Below, one piece after another: positions 2,459 through 44,636 of a stretch of 64,000 nucleotides of DNA (positions within the stretch are counted from its first letter, which is position 1; every line of letters starts with the position of its first letter). Location of the stretch: the sequence record NC_054930.1; one strand, given 5' to 3'. A program made the translations under genes and the position numbers. The notes under the pieces were generated by a model that worked only from the letters and a program-made list of their open reading frames with translations, ran no database searches and was not told the DNA's origin. The DNA comes from Escherichia phage PP01.

Positions 2459-4278
2459 TACTGGCTCATCCATTCTTTGCGAAGGTCAGCATTATCTCCC
2501 ATGAGCATTTCAAAAAGCTCTTTCCAGTTCTCAGGAAGTTTAACAACATCATATACTGGATTTTGAATCATCTCACGATATTCAGATTTTTCCAAAGAGC
2601 CAAGTCCCTTAATATAACGGATGCTATGTTTAGGTAGAGCATCTTTGGCACTCTCATATTCAGCGACTGTATAAAACCATTCTTGTTTTTTACCGACTTG
2701 AGCGATGATTACAGGAGTTTTGACAAAGCGAATTCGTCCTTGCTCAAACAGTTCTGGCCAATTACTAAAAAATCCAAGAAGAGAAGGATAAATGCTTCCT
2801 AAACCATCATGGTCAGCATCGGTCATAATAGCAATATTATGATAATTCAAGTTTTCAGCTTTTTCACCAAGAACTAATCCAGTGATTGCGCAAATATCAA
2901 ATAGTTCTTTGTTTTTAAGCATATCAGCATATGACATACCCCAACTGTTGAGAACTTTACCGCGCAATGGATAACCACCGTGAAGTTCTTTATCACGAAC
3001 ATCAATAAGATATCCGATAGCAGAATCACCCTCAGTCAAGAAAAGAGTAGTGTCAGCATCTTTACCGCAAAGATTCGCTTTGATATGTTTATGAACCTTA
3101 GCTTTAGAAGCCTTTTTAGCTGCTTTAGTTTCTGCTGCTTTTTCTGCTGCCAATTTACGGGCCAAGGCAGCTTCAATAATTGGCATCAGAATTGCTTCAT
3201 TATTTAAAATAGCGCGTGAAATCTTTTTAGCATCAAGTTGAATATGACTACGAATTTCGCCAAATGGAGAAGTCAAACGCTCTTTAGTTTGAGAATCAAA
3301 TCGCATGTTTTTCATATCACGGACAAACATAACGATAGTCAAACATTCTTTGACACGTGCTTTAGTTACATCAATTTTGAACTTACGTTTGATTTGTGGA
3401 ATAAGGTCTTCACAAATATCATCCATAACACAGTCAATGTGATGGCCACCATTCTTAGTGTGAATGTTATTCACGTAAGTTAATTGACGAAATCCATCCG
3501 GTGAACGACCAACCGCAATAGAACAATTTTCTTGTTCTTGAACAATAGCATGTTCATCATATTGGCGTGCATATTTCTTAAAATTACCCTGAACCTTTTT
3601 ACCGTTAAAGGTAAATTGAATATCAGGATAAACTACTGCAAGTGTCTGGAGACGATCCAGTGTAATGTCAAGATAAACTTGAGATAGCTCATTAGTTTCA
3701 AATGACATAAAATCAGGAATGAAAGTAACGCGAGTTCCTTTCCATTTTCCAGGAATAGTTTCCCATGATTTATTTTCCATGCCATTTGAACAACGAACCA
3801 CAATATTATTTTGACCGTCGCCAGTTTCACCGACAAACATCACAGAAAAAATGTTAGTTAAACTAGAACCAACACCGTTCATACCGCCAGTGACGCGTTC
3901 TTTATCATCACCAAAGTTGCCGCCTGCTTTTGGAATAGTCCAGGCGGCAACAGGACCAGGAATTTCTTCACCAGTAGGTGTTTTAACCATCGCTTGTGGA
4001 ATACCGCGACCGTTATCTTCAACTGTTACTTGATTGTTTTTAATAGTAACATTAATTTTATTCGCGAATTTAAACTTAGTACGAATACCTTCATCTACTG
4101 AGTTATCGATAATTTCATCAATAAGCTTAACAAGACCAGGTACATACTGAACACTTTCCCATTTACCAAACAGAAAGCGCTCATGCATTTCATTAGCAGA
4201 AGAACCAATGTACATGCCGCTACGCTTTTTGATATGTTCAATATCGCTCAGAATTTTAATTTCATTCTTAATCATCAC
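2458..4278 (-). CDS. 39: DNA topoisomerase II large subunit (GyrB-like ATPase + Toprim), uninterrupted
   Basis: 606-aa continuous ORF; GHKL ATPase motifs (DNGRGIP), Toprim LTEGDSA; corresponds to T4 gp39 plus gp60 as one gene. Confidence 0.9.
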   Translation of the reverse strand: MMIKNEIKILSDIEHIKKRSGMYIGSSANEMHERFLFGKWESVQYVPGLVKLIDEIIDNSVDEGIRTKFKFANKINVTIKNNQVTVEDNGRGIPQAMVKTPTGEEIPGPVAAWTIPKAGGNFGDDKERVTGGMNGVGSSLTNIFSVMFVGETGDGQNNIVVRCSNGMENKSWETIPGKWKGTRVTFIPDFMSFETNELSQVYLDITLDRLQTLAVVYPDIQFTFNGKKVQGNFKKYARQYDEHAIVQEQENCSIAVGRSPDGFRQLTYVNNIHTKNGGHHIDCVMDDICEDLIPQIKRKFKIDVTKARVKECLTIVMFVRDMKNMRFDSQTKERLTSPFGEIRSHIQLDAKKISRAILNNEAILMPIIEAALARKLAAEKAAETKAAKKASKAKVHKHIKANLCGKDADTTLFLTEGDSAIGYLIDVRDKELHGGYPLRGKVLNSWGMSYADMLKNKELFDICAITGLVLGEKAENLNYHNIAIMTDADHDGLGSIYPSLLGFFSNWPELFEQGRIRFVKTPVIIAQVGKKQEWFYTVAEYESAKDALPKHSIRYIKGLGSLEKSEYREMIQNPVYDVVKLPENWKELFEMLMGDNADLRKEWMSQ

Positions 4279-4327
4279 TTATCCTCGTTTGGTTTCGGGA
4301 ATATTATACTCCGGTAATCATAAAGCT

Positions 4328-4345
4328 AAAGGCCCGAAGGCCTTT
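4328..4345. terminator. palindromic GC hairpin (AAAGGCC-CGAA-GGCCTTT)
   Basis: Perfect stem with CGAA loop between the lipoprotein gene and gene 39; the T-run is better on the plus strand. Confidence 0.4.
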
Positions 4346-4617
4346 TATTTAAAACGGATAGTCGAATCCTTGAAGAATAGACCAGAACATACTGTTCCTT
4401 CTACTTTCTGCCCGGTAGGTCCAATAGCACGAAATCCAGTATGCTGGAAATCATTTTCAGAGCAACCGAACCAGTTGTATCCAGTGATTTCAATATTAGT
4501 AAAACCGCTTGAAGACAAAATTTTGGTTGCATTATCAGCATCAGTACATCCTACTAAAGATACTGCTAATACTAATGCTGCGATAGAACGATTAACATAT
4601 TTCATAATTTCACTCAA
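4345..4617 (-). CDS. putative lipoprotein
   Basis: 90 aa; N-terminal signal peptide with lipobox LVGC. Confidence 0.5.
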   Translation of the reverse strand: MSEIMKYVNRSIAALVLAVSLVGCTDADNATKILSSSGFTNIEITGYNWFGCSENDFQHTGFRAIGPTGQKVEGTVCSGLFFKDSTIRFK

Positions 4618-4981
4618 ATTTAATGGCTTGAAGAAGACTAATAATTCTCAAGCGACTTCTTTCATCTTTAACTGTAAAAGAAAGAGGGTCGCCAGATTTC
4701 ATAGTGATAGTGCATTCAAAATCAAAATCTTCAGGAACTTCTTCGAAGAAGTCAAATTCTTCATCATAAATTAGAACATTACTCTGAAAACTGTGAAGAA
4801 TTTTTCCATCATTTCCAGATGCTGTACTAATCATTGTAACATTATGGCCTTTCATATCTTCAACGATAAATTCGCTTGTAGATATTACGGCATTAATAGA
4901 ACCATTCCTATAAATAGAAGAAAGCAGATATTTCTTTTCTTCACCTTCGCGAACACGATATTTCTTACCGATTTTAAACAT
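4610..4981 (-). CDS. hypothetical protein
   Basis: 123-aa ORF in the co-oriented early gene chain. Confidence 0.45.
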   Translation of the reverse strand: MFKIGKKYRVREGEEKKYLLSSIYRNGSINAVISTSEFIVEDMKGHNVTMISTASGNDGKILHSFQSNVLIYDEEFDFFEEVPEDFDFECTITMKSGDPLSFTVKDERSRLRIISLLQAIKFE

Positions 4982-21286: not shown

Positions 21287-21649
21287 TTAAAAGAATTTAA
21301 ATTTTTTCTTTGACCTTTTATTAAATGCATCTTGTAGTTGCATTGTAATACATTTTTCTACATGAGGAGCTAACTCAGCTTTTCTTTCTTGGTCAAGAAC
21401 AGCAAAGTCCATTACGACTTTTCCATCAACCCAATCTAATTTTGTCACATACACAATGTGTGTAGAACCGTCTTCTAGTTTAATGACAATCTCCTGGATA
21501 ACATTTTCCATGGCAGATTTAATTATCTTAAGAGATTCATTAAAAAGACGTTCTTTTCTTTCTTCTTCCCCCTCCGAAGAGGGGGATTCGTCGATAATTT
21601 CTAGATCTAAATCCAAATCATCTTTATTCATTAAATTCTTCCATATCAC
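21287..21649 (-). CDS. 40: gp40-like head assembly protein
   Basis: 120-aa acidic ORF between 41 and uvsX as in T4. Confidence 0.5.
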   Translation of the reverse strand: MIWKNLMNKDDLDLDLEIIDESPSSEGEEERKERLFNESLKIIKSAMENVIQEIVIKLEDGSTHIVYVTKLDWVDGKVVMDFAVLDQERKAELAPHVEKCITMQLQDAFNKRSKKKFKFF

Positions 21650-22805
21650 TTAACTGATCTAGGTCAGTTTCTAAATCAGCTGCTGATTTACTTTTACTTT
21701 CTGGAGATTTAAATTTTTCAACCTTTGAGTTAATCAATTCATCAACTTCAGCTTCAACAATTTCATTACTATCAATAGCACCTAACTGATAAGCGCGTTT
21801 AATAGCATCTCGGAATGGTTGATGCTTAAATAAAGGACCCCAGAATGTAGTACAGTTGGTATCTTTTGCACGCCAAGATTTTTCTTCGCGAATCATCTCG
21901 CCTGTTTCTTCATCAAGAAATTCACGAGCATACCAGCCATTTTTAGGTTTTACTACAAATCCTAATTCAAGAGCCATATCTAACAATCCAGAATAAGGAT
22001 CGATACCACCGTCAAATTTAACATCAATAAAGAATTTACTTTTTTCTTTAACGGTACGAGATTTTTCTACATTTAGAACAAATTGATACCCCTGAAGATC
22101 AGAACCATCTTTAATCTGACGCTTACCGATAATGAATACAGTATCAGCCGAATACATTACGCCTGTACCACCTGTCATCACGGTTTTACTAAACATTTCA
22201 ATTGTTTCAATTGTGTGGTTAACCGCAACACATGGAATGTTTTTAATACTAAAATAAGGAGTAACAATACGGAATAATGACTTCAGTGATTTAGCACGAG
22301 TCATATCTGCCACAGATTTTTCATTTAAGGCATCTTCCGTTTCTTTCTTGGAAGCCATATTACCAATTGAGTCGATGAATACAATAACCTTTTCACCACG
22401 CTCAATAGCTTCAAGCTGATTCACCATATCAATTTTCAGCTGTTCAACTGACTGAATCGGCGTATGAATTACTCGTTCCGGGTCAACTCCCATGGATCGC
22501 AAATAAGCTGGAGTAATACCAAATTCGCTATCATAGAATAGACAAACCGCGTCAGGATATTTGTTCAAATATGCCGCAACCATAGTCAAAGACATATTTG
22601 ATTTAAAGTGTTTAGAAGGACCCGCGAAAATAGTTAAACCAGACTGCATACCACCATCAATCGCGCCAGAAATAGCGATATTGAGCATTGGAATTTTTGT
22701 ACGGATTACATCCTTTTCATTAAAGAATTTAGATGTAGTCAGTTCAGCAGTCATTTTAGAAGTGGAAGCTTTAATCAAACGGGATTTTAAATCTGCAATA
22801 GACAT
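21624..22805 (-). CDS. uvsX: UvsX recombinase (RecA-like)
   Basis: 393 aa; matches T4 UvsX as recalled; RecA fold P-loop GPSKHFKS. Confidence 0.92.
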   Translation of the reverse strand: MSIADLKSRLIKASTSKMTAELTTSKFFNEKDVIRTKIPMLNIAISGAIDGGMQSGLTIFAGPSKHFKSNMSLTMVAAYLNKYPDAVCLFYDSEFGITPAYLRSMGVDPERVIHTPIQSVEQLKIDMVNQLEAIERGEKVIVFIDSIGNMASKKETEDALNEKSVADMTRAKSLKSLFRIVTPYFSIKNIPCVAVNHTIETIEMFSKTVMTGGTGVMYSADTVFIIGKRQIKDGSDLQGYQFVLNVEKSRTVKEKSKFFIDVKFDGGIDPYSGLLDMALELGFVVKPKNGWYAREFLDEETGEMIREEKSWRAKDTNCTTFWGPLFKHQPFRDAIKRAYQLGAIDSNEIVEAEVDELINSKVEKFKSPESKSKSAADLETDLDQLSDMEEFNE

Positions 22806-22882
22806 TCATTTTTTCCATAGGCATCATTATATTTTCCTCACTGGTTAAAGATAGAGTAATTATAACACAATAAATTTAGGCA

Positions 22883-23731
22883 TTAATCGACTGCTATTGG
22901 ATGAATAGCATTAAACTTATGAAACGCTTCTGATTTTTCTTTGCGCGAAACACACATGCGAAGAACCTTTAATGGCTCGTCTTCTTCACCTAATGATTTT
23001 CGTTTTTCAATATTAGAAGTTTTCCAACGAGCTTGCTCTGGAAACTCTTTATTGATTTGCTCAAGAGCTCTATTATGTTTTGAATTACTACGAATTGAAC
23101 TACATCCGCCTGGAGCTTGTGCTTTTCCAGACACAACCAGATATTTGAACAAAGCCAAATGCGGATAACCCTGATTAATTAAATTGAGAAATGCATACAT
23201 ATCTTCGCATAAATCAATTTTTCCATACCCAATTTGTTCTGTAGTAAGTTTTCCGAGGTCATACCATGTATTCGTGAATCCATATGAATTTTCACGATAA
23301 TTACCCCAAGATGAAGTAATTTTAAAAATAGGTAGACGAGCATGACCGTGATAATACCCGCAATCCATGGCATCTTCAACGTATTGAATCAATTCATAGA
23401 ACTGTTCACGAGTTAATTGATTAATTTTATCTACGCAGCGACGATCATCTTTCTTTCGCATTGAACTCATACGAATAGTAGTATCATCATCAATCATCCA
23501 AATTCGTTGACCTGCATACATATCAGTAATTGCTTTACGAGTTCCAGCAATTCCATTAACATCATCAGGAATAGTTATAATTTTAGCCCTAGACCCGTAA
23601 GCGTCATAATAAGCTTTTTCTTCATGTTCACGTACTACAATATGAGGTTCATAATCAGTCGGAAACATATCAAGGGCAGAAACTGCCCCTACGCGTTGAT
23701 AGCTTGGAATTACGAATTGAATCATTTCCAC
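22883..23731 (-). CDS. glycosyltransferase, GT-A fold (candidate beta-glucosyl-HMC alpha-glucosyltransferase)
   Basis: 282 aa; DxD motif WMIDDDTTI; occupies the beta-gt locus between uvsX and gene 42 but is unlike T4 beta-gt (351 aa). Confidence 0.5.
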   Translation of the reverse strand: MEMIQFVIPSYQRVGAVSALDMFPTDYEPHIVVREHEEKAYYDAYGSRAKIITIPDDVNGIAGTRKAITDMYAGQRIWMIDDDTTIRMSSMRKKDDRRCVDKINQLTREQFYELIQYVEDAMDCGYYHGHARLPIFKITSSWGNYRENSYGFTNTWYDLGKLTTEQIGYGKIDLCEDMYAFLNLINQGYPHLALFKYLVVSGKAQAPGGCSSIRSNSKHNRALEQINKEFPEQARWKTSNIEKRKSLGEEDEPLKVLRMCVSRKEKSEAFHKFNAIHPIAVD

Positions 23732-24462
23732 TCACCGTTATAATCTTTTTTCGCAATATGAGTTTCGCCAGTTTTCCACCAATGGTCAACCAAATAAAAA
23801 TGACGGGAATACACATGAAGGCTCCCGACATTCCATATAATGGAACCTGCTTTATACTGACGAGTTGAATCACCTGCATTCAAATCAGATACTAATTTAT
23901 CTAGTACATATTTTTGCCATGCATAATCATTACGGAATCCGAAGACCACGTCATTTGAACGCATGTTAACCACTGCATTAATTTTCTTATCACGAATCAG
24001 GTACTGTACTGTATTAGTACACATGAAATCCGACATGCCATCTTTATTGTAGTCAAACTGCATGGATGGACGAGTATAAATCATGATACCGCGTCGAGAA
24101 TCAGGATTTTGACCAAGTTCAGCTAAACACATATCATACTGGGCATAGTTATCTTCTGACCAGATGGCCCAACCATAATTCGAGTTAATTTCGCCTTTAG
24201 AAGATGCTACCTGCTGCCAAATCTTCGGCGTTTCACCTGGAATATCTTTAACAAACAAACTTTGAGACTTATACCATTCAAGTTCACGCTGAATGTATTC
24301 ATCATTAAGAGCGCCAAAAATAAAAGGTTCATCTGCTACAAATGATGCACCAATAATTTCAATAGTTTTAACACCGGTTTTATCAATTACGAAATCTTTT
24401 TCCTTTAATGCAAGACCCAAATCAAGACGGATTTCTTCAACTGTCATATAATCGTTAATCAT
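23722..24462 (-). CDS. 42: dCMP hydroxymethylase
   Basis: 246 aa as in T4 gp42; thymidylate-synthase-like fold. Confidence 0.9.
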   Translation of the reverse strand: MINDYMTVEEIRLDLGLALKEKDFVIDKTGVKTIEIIGASFVADEPFIFGALNDEYIQRELEWYKSQSLFVKDIPGETPKIWQQVASSKGEINSNYGWAIWSEDNYAQYDMCLAELGQNPDSRRGIMIYTRPSMQFDYNKDGMSDFMCTNTVQYLIRDKKINAVVNMRSNDVVFGFRNDYAWQKYVLDKLVSDLNAGDSTRQYKAGSIIWNVGSLHVYSRHFYLVDHWWKTGETHIAKKDYNGEWK

Positions 24463-24469
24463 TTAAACC

Positions 24470-24619
24470 TCAATTGATGCATTCATATTTAATTTGTAAC
24501 AGTAATAAACTCCAACCTATAATAAGTGGCGGAATCATAAGAGGAACTGTTACGCTATAGTATATACTTATTATAATCATCAAGATTAAAAGCAATACTG
24601 CTAAAATTTTGCTTTTCAT
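24470..24619 (-). CDS. small hydrophobic peptide
   Basis: 49-codon ORF found by hand (MKSKILAVLLLILMIIISIYY...); ATGA overlap with imm stop. Confidence 0.35.
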   Translation of the reverse strand: MKSKILAVLLLILMIIISIYYSVTVPLMIPPLIIGWSLLLLQIKYECIN

Positions 24620-24867
24620 TCCTTCTCTCTGATGATAATTACTTGATTTTGCTGTACAGATTTTTTAGTTTCACCCGCAATTGACCAAATAAATGTAATA
24701 AACCAACCAATGATTGACCAGTTAAACAGTAAAGATGTGAAAAAGATTCCTACTGTCGATTTTGACCCACGCATCAAGGCGATGAACCATGGAAGCATGT
24801 ATATAATAATAGCCAACACGCCTGAAACTAAAACCATAAAAATTGAACCTGCTACTAAAGTTTCCAT
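24616..24867 (-). CDS. imm: Imm superinfection immunity membrane protein
   Basis: 83 aa as in T4 Imm; two TM helices. Confidence 0.78.
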   Translation of the reverse strand: METLVAGSIFMVLVSGVLAIIIYMLPWFIALMRGSKSTVGIFFTSLLFNWSIIGWFITFIWSIAGETKKSVQQNQVIIIREKE

Positions 24868-24874
24868 ATTTTCC

Positions 24875-25255
24875 TCACTTAGTCAAATTTTTTACGCATG
24901 AATTATAAGAATTCACTACATACTCCATCGGAGCATTTTTACCTGTACGCCATTGGTAATTATTAGCCCAATTAGCCCAAAGCTCAGCGCAGTAGTTTTC
25001 AATTTTTTCTTCGCGTGTAATTACATCTGAATTACGATATGCTTGAGCAGATTCATCTGGGCGAATAGCTTCGTCAAAATTCGCCTGCATCTGTTCTACT
25101 GTCTGTTTTGGAGCTTCTTTATAACACTTGACGTTAGGATTATAAAATTTGCTTGAACAGTTTACAATTTTTCCTACATCAGACTGATTTACTACCGGTC
25201 CTTGAGCTACACATCCAGTAAGACCCAATACAATAACCAAAATAGCGATTTTCAT
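24875..25255 (-). CDS. putative lipoprotein
   Basis: 126 aa; signal peptide with lipobox LTGC. Confidence 0.55.
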   Translation of the reverse strand: MKIAILVIVLGLTGCVAQGPVVNQSDVGKIVNCSSKFYNPNVKCYKEAPKQTVEQMQANFDEAIRPDESAQAYRNSDVITREEKIENYCAELWANWANNYQWRTGKNAPMEYVVNSYNSCVKNLTK

Positions 25256-25265
25256 AATAATTTCC

Positions 25266-25502
25266 TCAAATACAAGTAGTAATTACTCCAGTAGTGCTTA
25301 TGCAGGTATTACCCATTTGCACACCTAAAGATCCATTTGTATTCACATGAAGATTATCATCAATTTTAACTGATATTTTACCATTAGTGTGAATAACGGT
25401 GCTAGATTTAATCACAGGTTGAGTATCATTTTCAACACTAACAAATGGAACTGCTACTAATGCAACTAAACAAACTGCTAAGCATCCCATAACAATTTTC
25501 AT
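25266..25502 (-). CDS. small secreted/membrane protein
   Basis: ORF track 25266-25514 (MENKM); hydrophobic N-terminus. Confidence 0.45.
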   Translation of the reverse strand: MKIVMGCLAVCLVALVAVPFVSVENDTQPVIKSSTVIHTNGKISVKIDDNLHVNTNGSLGVQMGNTCISTTGVITTCI

Positions 25503-25539
25503 TTTATTCTCCAAATCTGTATCAGTAGTTGATAGTTGT

Positions 25540-35966: not shown

Positions 35967-35984
35967 TAAAGGGCCGAAGCCCTT
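35967..35984. terminator. palindromic GC hairpin between alpha-gt and gene 47
   Basis: AAAGGGC-CGAA-GCCCTTT; same architecture as 4328-4345. Confidence 0.45.
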
Positions 35985-37186
35985 TATTTTGTAATAATGT
36001 CAAACTGTTCTTTAAAGCAGAAGCTTGAATCTTGATGCTGATACAAAAATTCATAAGCTTTTTCGCGTTCACGGTCATAAAGAGCTCGGTCAGATGACAG
36101 TTCTTTAATACGCTCAAATGTTGATTCCATGTCATTTTCATCAAACCAAACGATACCGCTATCATGAGAAATTAACGGAGTATTATCAACACGGAATTTT
36201 AAATTTTCGCCAGTAGATTTCCAAAATACCGGAATTGTTCCACACGCACCAAGCTCGAGATGAGTATATTCTAAAGAACGCTGTAGATATTTTTTATCTA
36301 ATTTACTCAGCTGATAACCAAATCCGGATTTACTCATGCGTTCAAGCATTTCGCTATTTACATAACGGTCGAGAATTTGCGTTGGCAAATTAGGAGCAAT
36401 TTTAATTTGGTCTACTTGATGAAGACGATAATACTCGTATGGAATTCCTTTTTCTTTAATAGGAATGAACGCTGGAGAACGTTCCAGACCTTCCATAACA
36501 GTACTTAGTCCTGCAGGTTTAAGATGTTTTTCGTGAAAATCAAACATCTGATAAAAGCCTTTCCATGTAGTAGTACGACCAATCCAACGGTTGATATTCA
36601 TGTTAATTTCAGAAACATCTTTCCAGTAAGTTGATCGAACCTTCGCAATATCCATAGGAGGCTGAAAGTTATATACGGTCGGTGCTTCTTCAATATCATC
36701 AAACAAAGAAACTGTTTCTGGATACCATTCTTTCATTAAAACTTTATTAAAATCACCATTATCAGAATGGCTAAAAATAACATCAGCTCGACGAACAGTT
36801 TCTTCTAATCCCAAATTTCGGCGCAAAGAAAGAGAAGAATGGTCATGTTGATAAACTACAACACGAACCGAAGGTTTAATGTTATCAATAATTTTTTTAT
36901 AGTTATTAATCGTGTCTTCTTCAACTGAAGTAGCAGGAACTGAATTGATAATTAGAATATCACAATCATTTACCAACTTAAGTGTTTTATCGTATTCTTT
37001 TGCCAATAAAACCGGAATTGAAAATGACTTATAATCATGTGCGCAATTACGAGTAAATGATTTATCTTTAGCATAAACCAAAGTTACTTCATGACCATTT
37101 TTAATAAACCAATCACGTTGCTCAAGAGAAAATTTAGTTACACCACAACCTTCAAGACCTCGAGCCATAAAAATGCATACTTTCAT
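35984..37186 (-). CDS. a-gt: alpha-glucosyltransferase
   Basis: 400 aa as in T4 alpha-gt; position after gene 47. Confidence 0.85.
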   Translation of the reverse strand: MKVCIFMARGLEGCGVTKFSLEQRDWFIKNGHEVTLVYAKDKSFTRNCAHDYKSFSIPVLLAKEYDKTLKLVNDCDILIINSVPATSVEEDTINNYKKIIDNIKPSVRVVVYQHDHSSLSLRRNLGLEETVRRADVIFSHSDNGDFNKVLMKEWYPETVSLFDDIEEAPTVYNFQPPMDIAKVRSTYWKDVSEINMNINRWIGRTTTWKGFYQMFDFHEKHLKPAGLSTVMEGLERSPAFIPIKEKGIPYEYYRLHQVDQIKIAPNLPTQILDRYVNSEMLERMSKSGFGYQLSKLDKKYLQRSLEYTHLELGACGTIPVFWKSTGENLKFRVDNTPLISHDSGIVWFDENDMESTFERIKELSSDRALYDREREKAYEFLYQHQDSSFCFKEQFDIITK

Positions 37187-41528: not shown

Positions 41529-41999
41529 TTAATCATGTTTCCACACCCCATCGGTATTTGACCAAAGTCGCTGATTATCTGATCCTCGCCACAGCTTTTT
41601 GGTCGGAAGATTTTTCTCATACTTCCCATCAATAATAACATCAACATATTTAAGCATTTCTAGTTGTTTAATATCTTCAAACTTATATCCTGTCCACAAC
41701 CAAATGCTTTTATTTGGATAAAGATTTTTTACTGTTTGAACAATGCAATGAACAACATCTCGGTTATCAGGATAGAGAGGGTCTCCTCCAGTTATAGTTA
41801 ATCCTTCTATATAATCATTATTCAAACATTCAATTAATTGTTCCAGCGTTTCACCAGTGAATGGAATGCCATTTCTAGCATTCCATGTTGATTTATTATA
41901 ACACCCTTCACATTTATGCAAACAACCTGTAACGAAAAGAACGACCCTGCAACCAGGGCCATTCACAAAGCAGCACGGGTATATTCTGTCATAATTCAT
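41529..41999 (-). CDS. nrdG: anaerobic ribonucleotide reductase activating protein (radical SAM)
   Basis: CxxxCxxC radical SAM cluster motif (CLHKCEGC); start at Met 41999 (about 156 aa). Confidence 0.85.
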   Translation of the reverse strand: MNYDRIYPCCFVNGPGCRVVLFVTGCLHKCEGCYNKSTWNARNGIPFTGETLEQLIECLNNDYIEGLTITGGDPLYPDNRDVVHCIVQTVKNLYPNKSIWLWTGYKFEDIKQLEMLKYVDVIIDGKYEKNLPTKKLWRGSDNQRLWSNTDGVWKHD

Positions 42000-42826
42000 A
42001 ATAATATCCAATTTTTCCAAGCTTCATCAGTAGAATTACAGCGTTTTAGTATAAGATGTCTAGAAACTTTTATGGCATTTGAGCACTTTTTAATTGAATC
42101 ATATTTAATACCGTCAACTGAAACGGTTTTGCTAGTTGGAGAAATTTTTCCATACATTGGATTTTTTGAACCAACTTGAAGTCCTTTTAAAGCTTTTGAA
42201 AGCTTTTGTCTAGATTCCAATGACATGGGAGAATTCTTTTTACCTTCAATAATTCGCTTGCGATGAAGTTCGCGTTCTTCTTCACTCAAAGAATTGTAAT
42301 ATTTTTTAACACCGTTTGATATAGATAATTTATCTTTCTCAGACCGCTCTCCAGCTAATTTACTTCTAACATCTTTTCGCTTCATAGCTATGCTTACGGC
42401 TTTATTTAAATTTGCTTGATGCTCTGGCGTACGTTTATATTTCTTTAAAGCACGTGAAATAGCTATTTTAGTTTCTTCTGTTCTCTTTTTACCTTTATTT
42501 GCTAAACTATTTTTGCGGCGATGTTCAAGTGTCTGTTCATAGGCAGTTCCACCTTTTCCACCAGGTTTAATATTATATGTATTTTCTTTTAGACAATACT
42601 CTTCGGTTACAAGTTCAGCTTCTTTATCATACATTTGTTTTTCATTATCAAAAACATGTAAAATTTCTTTATTAAAATTTTTTCTACCATATTTTAATAA
42701 AGCGGCACGAATCAATGTTCCTGACCCCATATAACCGTCATTTATGTTATCGGTGCTATGCGCACCGATATATTCCTTTGAATTAATTATATTTGTTATT
42801 TTATAAATTATATAATACCTATGCAT
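41996..42826 (-). CDS. free-standing GIY-YIG homing endonuclease (Seg-like)
   Basis: 276 aa; GIY-YIG motif YIIYKITN...KEYIGAHS; basic C-terminal DNA-binding repeats; inserted between nrdG and nrdD. Confidence 0.7.
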   Translation of the reverse strand: MHRYYIIYKITNIINSKEYIGAHSTDNINDGYMGSGTLIRAALLKYGRKNFNKEILHVFDNEKQMYDKEAELVTEEYCLKENTYNIKPGGKGGTAYEQTLEHRRKNSLANKGKKRTEETKIAISRALKKYKRTPEHQANLNKAVSIAMKRKDVRSKLAGERSEKDKLSISNGVKKYYNSLSEEERELHRKRIIEGKKNSPMSLESRQKLSKALKGLQVGSKNPMYGKISPTSKTVSVDGIKYDSIKKCSNAIKVSRHLILKRCNSTDEAWKNWILL

Positions 42827-44636
42827 GTTTTACTCGTTTTACCATTTCTTTCATTTTACCTAAATTCCATGGAACAACGCTAGGAGTTCCAAGATAACCG
42901 CATGTTCTTCTTATGGTGTTCATCTTTTTAGGATCAGTTTCTCCACAAATAGAACAAACAAATCCGTTTTCAGTAGGAGTCATTTCATGGGTACTTCCAC
43001 ACGTAAAACATTTATCTACCGGCATGTTAACACCAAAATAATCTAAATGTTGTGCAGCATAATCCCATACGGCCTCAAGACCCTTTAAGTTATTTTTCAT
43101 ATCAGGAAGTTCAACATAAGAAATGTGACCGCCTGTCGCAATGAAATGATATGGCGCTTCACGAGAAATCTTTTCAAACGGAGTAATATTTTCTTCTACT
43201 GAAACATGGAAACTGTTAGTGTACCAGCCTTTATCGGTAACATCTTTTACGCTTCCATATTTTTCTGTATCGAGTTTACAGAAGCGATAACAAAGGTTTT
43301 CAGCAGGAGTAGAATACAAGCTAAAAGCAAAACCGGTTCTTTCAGTCCACTGCTTAAGACGAGCATTCATTTTAGTCAAAATTTCCTGTCCAATATCACG
43401 ACCGACAAGAATATTCAATTCGTGAATACCAATGTATCCTAGGGACACTGAACTTCTACCGTTTTTAAATAACTCAATTATGTCGTCATCAGGTTTAAGA
43501 CGAACCCCGAATGCACCTTCTTGGTAAAGAATAGGAGCAACAGTCGCTTTAACTCCTTTTAAGGAACTAATTCTACACATCAAAGCTTCAAAACACAAAT
43601 CCATACGTTCATTGAATAATTCAACAAATTTCTGTTCATTGAACTGTGTTCCAATATAAGAATCTAACGCGATGCGAGGAAGATTCAGTGTTACAACACC
43701 AAGATTATTACGTCCATCAAGAATTTCATTACCAGTCGAATCTTTCCATACGCTCAAGAAACTACGGCAACCCATTGGAGAAACAGGAACAGATGAACCA
43801 GTGATAGCTTTATTGTTCTTAGCTGAAATAATATCAGGATACATCCTTTTGCTTGCACACTCTAGAGCAAGCTGCTTAATATCATAGTTCGGATCGTCTT
43901 TATAAAGATTAACACCTTCTTCAACGAACATAACAAGTTTAGGGAAAATAGGAGTTATCCCATCACGACCAAGACCTTTAATACGATTTTTCAGAATTGC
44001 TTTCTGAATCATTCGTTCAGTCCAGTCAGTTCCCGTACCAAATGTAATTGTTACAAAAGGCGTTTGTCCGTTTGAACTAAAGAGAGTATTTACTTCATAT
44101 TCATAAGCTTGGAACGCATCGTATACGTCTTTTTCTGTTTTAGATTGGGCATAATTCAACGCGTCAGCGATTTGCCATTTTTCTGCATCCTCAATATGTT
44201 TTGCATAGGTGCGTTTAACATAAGGAGAAAGGACTTTATCTACATTCGCAAAAGTCGTTCCACCGTATTGATGGGAAGCAACCTGTGCAGTAATTTGTGC
44301 CATAATTGCAGTAGCAACACCGATTGATTTAGGAGTTTCAATCTGTGCATTACCGAGCTTAAATCCGTTCTCAAGCATTCCTTTTAAATCTACTAAACAG
44401 CAATTAGTAAATGGAAGAGCAGGGGAATAATCAATATCATGGAAATGAATAATTCCGCTTTCATGCGCTTTCATAATAAAAGACGGGACCATATTTTTGG
44501 CAATGTGTTTAGACACAATACCAGCCATAAGGTCCCGTTGAGTTGGAAAAACACGAGAATCTTTATTAGCATTCTCGTTTAAAAGGTCTTTATTAGTTTT
44601 ATGAATCAATCCTTCAATTTCTTTTTCAATTGTCAT
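42819..44636 (-). CDS. nrdD: anaerobic ribonucleoside-triphosphate reductase (glycyl radical enzyme), intron-less
   Basis: 605 aa continuous ORF; C-terminal glycyl radical motif RTCGYLG; Zn ribbon CFTCGS...CSICG. Confidence 0.92.
   Translation of the reverse strand: MTIEKEIEGLIHKTNKDLLNENANKDSRVFPTQRDLMAGIVSKHIAKNMVPSFIMKAHESGIIHFHDIDYSPALPFTNCCLVDLKGMLENGFKLGNAQIETPKSIGVATAIMAQITAQVASHQYGGTTFANVDKVLSPYVKRTYAKHIEDAEKWQIADALNYAQSKTEKDVYDAFQAYEYEVNTLFSSNGQTPFVTITFGTGTDWTERMIQKAILKNRIKGLGRDGITPIFPKLVMFVEEGVNLYKDDPNYDIKQLALECASKRMYPDIISAKNNKAITGSSVPVSPMGCRSFLSVWKDSTGNEILDGRNNLGVVTLNLPRIALDSYIGTQFNEQKFVELFNERMDLCFEALMCRISSLKGVKATVAPILYQEGAFGVRLKPDDDIIELFKNGRSSVSLGYIGIHELNILVGRDIGQEILTKMNARLKQWTERTGFAFSLYSTPAENLCYRFCKLDTEKYGSVKDVTDKGWYTNSFHVSVEENITPFEKISREAPYHFIATGGHISYVELPDMKNNLKGLEAVWDYAAQHLDYFGVNMPVDKCFTCGSTHEMTPTENGFVCSICGETDPKKMNTIRRTCGYLGTPSVVPWNLGKMKEMVKRVKHA

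Follow-up and report, generated by a model that had tools for sequence, protein, structure and literature searches.

We analyzed a window of 64,000 nucleotides from Escherichia phage PP01 (NC_054930.1), a mosaic Tequatrovirus that, over 24 kb, shares about 97% identity with many records. An open reading frame on the minus strand, 22883 to 23731, contains RIWMIDDDTTIR and encodes 282 aa when read from a GTG; it is flanked by uvsX (21624 to 22805, 393 aa), the recombinase gene that is its downstream neighbor, and by gene 42 (23722 to 24462, 246 aa), a dCMP hydroxymethylase matching Pfam Thymidylat_synt, both on the same strand. In T4 the corresponding order is uvsX, segA, b-gt (351 aa), 42. The original prediction of a 282-aa frame in the position of T4 b-gt is thus borne out by the list of open reading frames and the T4 layout, with a correction to the start. 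Judged from the sequence, the gene, hereafter ba-gt (also g-gt or TAGT), most likely begins at the ATG at 23725, the third codon of the 282-aa frame, and would span 22883 to 23725 with a product of 280 aa. This start is favored by its ATGA overlap with the TGA of gene 42 (23722 to 23725, minus strand), by a GGTGA 6 nt upstream, by two independent T2 records in which an 843-nt coding sequence of 280 aa is annotated from the same ATG in the same arrangement, and by the 90% cluster of the protein, in which 14 of the 15 members listed are 280 aa long; the GTG at 23731 was dropped on the same grounds. The ATGA overlap suggests that translation of ba-gt is coupled to that of gene 42.

The space between the ba-gt stop and the start of uvsX (22806 to 22882), the site of segA in T4, measures only 77 nt, which leaves the locus without segA, as had been claimed. 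T2 and T6 likewise have 77 nt before uvsX, and the layout of gene 42, ATGA, ba-gt, 77 nt and uvsX is identical in both. When the window is compared with T4 by blastn, homology ends at 22793, 12 nt inside uvsX, and restarts at 23740, within the final six codons of gene 42; upstream of this point DNA identity to T4 is 94%. Both boundaries of the variable cassette (22794 to 23739) lie within coding sequence, one in the final codons of gene 42 and one in the opening codons of uvsX, and the exchangeable unit is therefore 946 bp here versus 1941 bp, comprising segA and b-gt, in T4. An 11/11 match between the spacer and T4, TATCTTTAACC, has an E value of 0.35 and was taken as chance. Read by eye, the spacer contains a possible uvsX promoter, TGTTATAAT; a scan of 22600 to 25000 for sigma-70 promoters and terminators gave no excess over shuffled sequences (11 promoter-like sites versus 10.6, and 1 terminator-like site versus 1.5). 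A strong hairpin, GGGGCAG/CTGCCCT with a 3-nt loop, lies on the minus strand at 23691 to 23671, shortly after the gene 42 stop and 35 to 55 nt into the ba-gt coding region, and has the same sequence in T2 and T6. It is unexceptional when the surrounding 106 nt are folded (z = -0.55), and the terminator scan is unremarkable there too.

The ba-gt protein matches PHROG 842, "beta-glucosyl-HMC-alpha-glucosyltransferase," with an E value of 1.2e-89, and Pfam PF20691 (TET-associated glycosyltransferase, TAGT) with 38.8 bits against a cutoff of 27.5 bits, residues 5 to 209 covering profile positions 2 to 205 of 205. A weak Pfam match of the C-terminal tail to RNA_binding (E 0.15, below the cutoff) was set aside. 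Direct alignment with the T2 and T6 enzymes, the check that had been proposed for this gene, gives 5 and 7 differing residues, respectively, out of 280, and identity to T2 by tblastn is 97.9%. The gene shares with its T2 and T6 counterparts the length of 280 aa, the position between gene 42 and uvsX, the overlap, the spacer, an accompanying alpha-gt, and the IPSYxR and DDD motifs. There is no substantive difference: relative to both enzymes the window protein has K92, I101 and K226, and at position 11 it has the consensus Arg, in contrast to the His of T2. Homologs are abundant. Megablast of the locus retrieves 595 phage records, 455 of them with at least 80% query coverage and the best 99.7% identical; tblastn of the protein retrieves 688, of which 471 are at least 90% identical, about 200 are Klebsiella and Enterobacter T4-like phages at 63 to 66%, and Serratia PS2 stands at 48%. 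A public cluster holds 485 near-identical sequences, and its representative and the window protein are the same at all but one residue. The match to PHROG 842 and the 688 phage records place this reading frame far beyond chance. Across nine homologs with identities down to 32% (alignment A1), all 40 invariant columns, among them I6, P7, S8, Y9, R11, D79, D80, D81, D121 and D175, are intact in the window protein.

The DxD-type metal/UDP-sugar binding motif, Asp79-Asp80-Asp81 (GATGATGAT; 23489 to 23497, minus strand), which had been predicted as a GT-A-type motif within WMIDDDTTI, is invariant in alignment A1, follows directly upon strand 74 to 77 in the structure model, which places it where a beta strand ends, and pairs with DDD in the alignment to AvpGT (9jma), a GT2 enzyme. 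The N-terminal IPSYxR motif, I6-P7-S8-Y9-Q10-R11 (23693 to 23710, minus strand), in which I6, P7, S8, Y9 and R11 are invariant, is aligned with IPTYNR of 9jma, the nucleotide-binding motif of GT2 enzymes, and would be its counterpart. The structure model is of moderate confidence, with pLDDT below 50 for residues 128 to 151 and 195 to 211, and its Foldseek matches, at modest E values of 6e-4 and weaker, comprise GT-A enzymes along with nucleotidyltransferases related to them and include no GT-B protein. The glycosyltransferase fold that had been anticipated is thus supported by the model, in which the protein has a GT-A fold that carries the acidic DxD motif. None of the Pfam GT2 models, including Glycos_transf_2, matches the protein at E ≤ 1, and what it shares with GT2 enzymes is the fold alone. 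GT2-family GT-A enzymes such as AvpGT, TarP/TarS, K4CP, BcsA and SpsA have no significant sequence match to ba-gt, and their acceptor is a lipid, polysaccharide or teichoic acid, whereas that of ba-gt is a sugar on DNA. Searches of PDB sequences with the single protein and with a nine-sequence profile gave nothing significant (the best profile match, a GT2 enzyme, has an E value of 0.25), and on these searches there is no solved structure for the TAGT family, so the fold was assessed on a model. Beyond the TAGT domain, the protein continues for about 70 C-terminal residues; this extension is basic and may contact DNA.

The second component expected of a T2/T6-type system is also encoded in the window. 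A DNA alpha-glucosyltransferase of 400 aa, alpha-gt, is found at 35984 to 37186 on the minus strand, where it had been predicted, and is full length (PHROG 2888, E 7e-222; PF11440, AGT, 785 bits with the profile covered end to end). No T4-type beta-gt was found in the 64-kb window, where the best tblastn match of T4 b-gt has an E value of 1.5. T4 b-gt (GT63, PF09198, PHROG 7922) shares with ba-gt the position between uvsX and gene 42, the use of UDP-glucose and a beta linkage on modified phage DNA, but the two are unrelated in sequence and fold: the former is a GT-B protein of 351 aa, the latter a GT-A protein of 280 aa assigned to a different PHROG, with neither the sequence similarity nor the GT-B fold that define T4 b-gt. 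T4 b-gt also travels with the homing endonuclease gene segA, and it acts directly on naked hmC, whereas ba-gt extends alpha-glucosyl-hmC (PMC13216743).

We conclude, with a probability of about 0.95, that the reading frame encodes a T2/T6-type beta-glucosyl-HMC-alpha-glucosyltransferase that extends alpha-glucosyl-hmC to gentiobiosyl-hmC. The direct support here is the identity to the T2 and T6 enzymes, the family assignment, the synteny, the fold and the intact reading frame, along with an alpha-gt in a window that contains no beta-gt, and nothing speaks directly against the assignment; the original reading, a further modifier of alpha-glucosylated DNA, is upheld by the same evidence. The enzymatic product and the effect on defense that we assign to ba-gt are carried over from the literature on T2, T6 and wild phages and would hold for PP01 by analogy. 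The alpha-gt of T2 and T6 places glucose on about 75% of hmC, and ba-gt then adds a second, beta-1,6-linked glucose to yield gentiobiosyl-hmC (PMC6024577); T6 without ba-gt has alpha-glucosyl-hmC only (PMC11078745). In ten wild Tequatroviruses that carry alpha-GT together with TAGT, the latter syntenic with the beta-GT of T4, LC-MS detected hmC, alpha-glucosyl-hmC and gentiobiosyl-hmC and no beta-glucosyl-hmC (PMC13390438). In PP01, gene 42 would accordingly supply hydroxymethyl-dCMP, put into DNA in place of cytosine, alpha-gt would attach one glucose in alpha linkage to roughly three quarters of hmC, and ba-gt would use UDP-glucose to add a second glucose, beta-1,6, onto the alpha-linked one. 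Within ba-gt, Asp79 to Asp81 would hold a divalent metal and the UDP diphosphate, the N-terminal IPSYxR strand may bind the nucleotide, and Asp175 (CEDMY), invariant and about 95 residues after the DxD motif, is a plausible catalytic base. The chemistry is probably metal dependent and, since a beta linkage would be made from an alpha-linked donor, inverting, as in GT2.

How much of the DNA would carry the second glucose? The extent of gentiobiosylation cannot be read from the sequence, since gentiobiosyl-hmC ranges from about 5% in T2 to about 72% in T6 between near-identical enzymes (PMC6024577). The T2 and T6 enzymes differ at only a few residues, which allows an unlikely alternative, namely, that ba-gt is present yet contributes little, as in T2, so that the DNA would be mostly alpha-glucosyl-hmC and naked hmC and T2-like towards defenses; the window protein is indeed closer to T2, with its 5 differences, than to T6, with 7. 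Against a T2-like enzyme, the window has Arg11, which is invariant in all nine homologs of alignment A1, in 15 of 15 sampled cluster members and in three IMG/VR contigs and is present in T6, whereas position 11 is His in both T2 records, and a search of IMG/VR for the His codon pattern gave no match; moreover, gentiobiosyl-hmC accounts for 40% or about two-thirds in the ten natural Tequatroviruses examined by LC-MS (PMC13390438). Gentiobiosylation in PP01 would more likely be high, as in T6, than low, as in T2.

Another alternative, that ba-gt transfers a different sugar or acts on beta-glucosyl-hmC or naked hmC, draws on the variety within the family. Full-length homologs of the same Pfam family adjoin gene 42 in Klebsiella, Enterobacter and Serratia T4-like phages, several of which pair the homolog with a beta-gt and not with an alpha-gt, so that the acceptor linkage may differ. 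TAGT adjoins beta-gt in phages of the Karamvirus, Moonvirus and Gelderlandvirus type, and TAGT stands alone in 288 of 753 phages (PMC13216743), implying that specificity varies across the family. Those homologs, however, are only about 48 to 66% identical to the window protein, which is about 98% identical to T2 and T6 enzymes of established product and is accompanied by alpha-gt but no beta-gt, and we regard a different specificity here as highly improbable. Still less probable, to the point of being nearly negligible, is a T4-type beta-gt outside the window that would add beta-glucosyl-hmC to the DNA. The genome is about 167 kb long and the window 64 kb, so that some 100 kb lies beyond it, and one phage among 753 that carry glycosyltransferases does have all three types (PMC13216743); yet the beta-gt of T4 and its relatives occupies exactly the locus that ba-gt fills here (PMC13390438), and the window contains no beta-gt match.

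In Karamvirus, Moonvirus and Gelderlandvirus-type phages (CC31, NC_014662; Merlin, NC_028857; S16, NC_020416), the beta-gt that adjoins the TAGT homolog is T4-like, with about 49% identity; the acceptor for TAGT in those phages would have to be beta-glucosyl-hmC or some other substrate. Only 29 records of the phage collection have a T4 beta-gt at 90% identity or more, versus 471 for ba-gt. Among sequenced T4-like coliphages, the arrangement seen in PP01 is more common than any other, and the exception is T4 itself. The ba-gt assignment is therefore correct but ordinary and already known.

With a T2/T6-type ba-gt, the DNA of PP01 is predicted to contain hmC, alpha-glucosyl-hmC and gentiobiosyl-hmC and no beta-glucosyl-hmC. 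The DNA glycosylase Brig1 excises alpha-glucosyl-hmC and spares T6 DNA, and T6 lacking ba-gt is more sensitive to it, indicating that the gentiobiosyl pattern would allow partial escape from this enzyme (PMC11078745). BapA is unable to take glucose off gentiobiosyl-hmC, and Brig3 attacks the roughly 25% of naked hmC in T2/T6-type DNA (bioRxiv 10.64898/2026.02.25.707755). GmrSD targets both glucosyl stereoisomers as well as gentiobiosyl-hmC (PMC13216743), and BrxU cleaves the DNA of such phages (PMC13390438), so a PP01-type pattern would still be sensitive to enzymes of these types. The predicted change in sensitivity to modification-dependent restriction is, on this literature, correct in general terms (PMC11078745, PMC13216743, PMC13390438, bioRxiv 10.64898/2026.02.25.707755). 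The assignment is of use for phage choice in therapy and for host-range prediction and adds no new biology.

The low gentiobiosyl content of T2 DNA has been known for decades. His11 (CAT) occurs in both T2 records, NC_054931 (2537 to 2539) and MH751506, in an otherwise invariant IPSYxR motif, the corresponding window codon being at 23693 to 23695; speculatively, it might underlie the contrast between about 5% in T2 and 72% in T6 (PMC6024577). The two T6 records carry lesions of their own. MH550421 has a TAG amber at codon 10 (around 4951 to 4953), because of which the protein is annotated with 261 aa from an internal Met, and AP018814 (coding sequence 4135 to 4974) has DD instead of DDD and thus 279 aa; the window gene has neither the amber codon nor the one-Asp deletion. 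That the two lesions differ suggests stock-specific drift or a suppressor-host history in laboratory T6.

A trace of ba-gt is also seen in T4. In the b-gt/segA spacer of T4 (NC_000866, 24238 to 24262), 3 nt upstream of the segA ATG, 23 of 25 nt match the last codons and stop of ba-gt (window 22881 to 22905), with an E value of 9e-5 and 34.2 bits versus a maximum of 32.2 in 200 shuffles. The match is probably a relic of an ancestral ba-gt that was replaced by b-gt and segA, and this remnant suggests that the T4 arrangement is derived. A broader scenario, which we hold tentatively and at somewhat less than even odds, is that the window represents the ancestral state of the locus, with b-gt and segA arriving later in T4, and that the wild Arg11/DDD alleles are fully active while the laboratory T2 and T6 strains are lesioned.

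Several other genes in the window deserve mention. A very hydrophobic frame of 49 aa (24470 to 24619, minus strand) lies in the gap between gene 42 and imm, has no Pfam match, and is annotated in neither T4 nor T2. Another small frame, of 82 aa (25266 to 25514, minus strand), lies between imm.1 and gene 43 and has an N-terminal hydrophobic segment and likewise no Pfam match; T2 lists it as hypothetical (T2_046 / RB51ORF048), whereas the T4 annotation omits it. A segA match at 42482 to 42820, which might have indicated that segA had moved elsewhere, belongs to SegH, a paralog already known, whose gene lies between nrdD and nrdG. This GIY-YIG/NUMOD3 homing endonuclease (41996 to 42826, minus strand) overlaps both nrdD (42819 to 44636) and nrdG (41529 to 42020); it matches SegH of phage RB3 (AY262138) at 100% identity and T4 SegA at 49% over the N-terminal 115 aa. 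The nrdD gene itself is a single uninterrupted frame of 605 aa.
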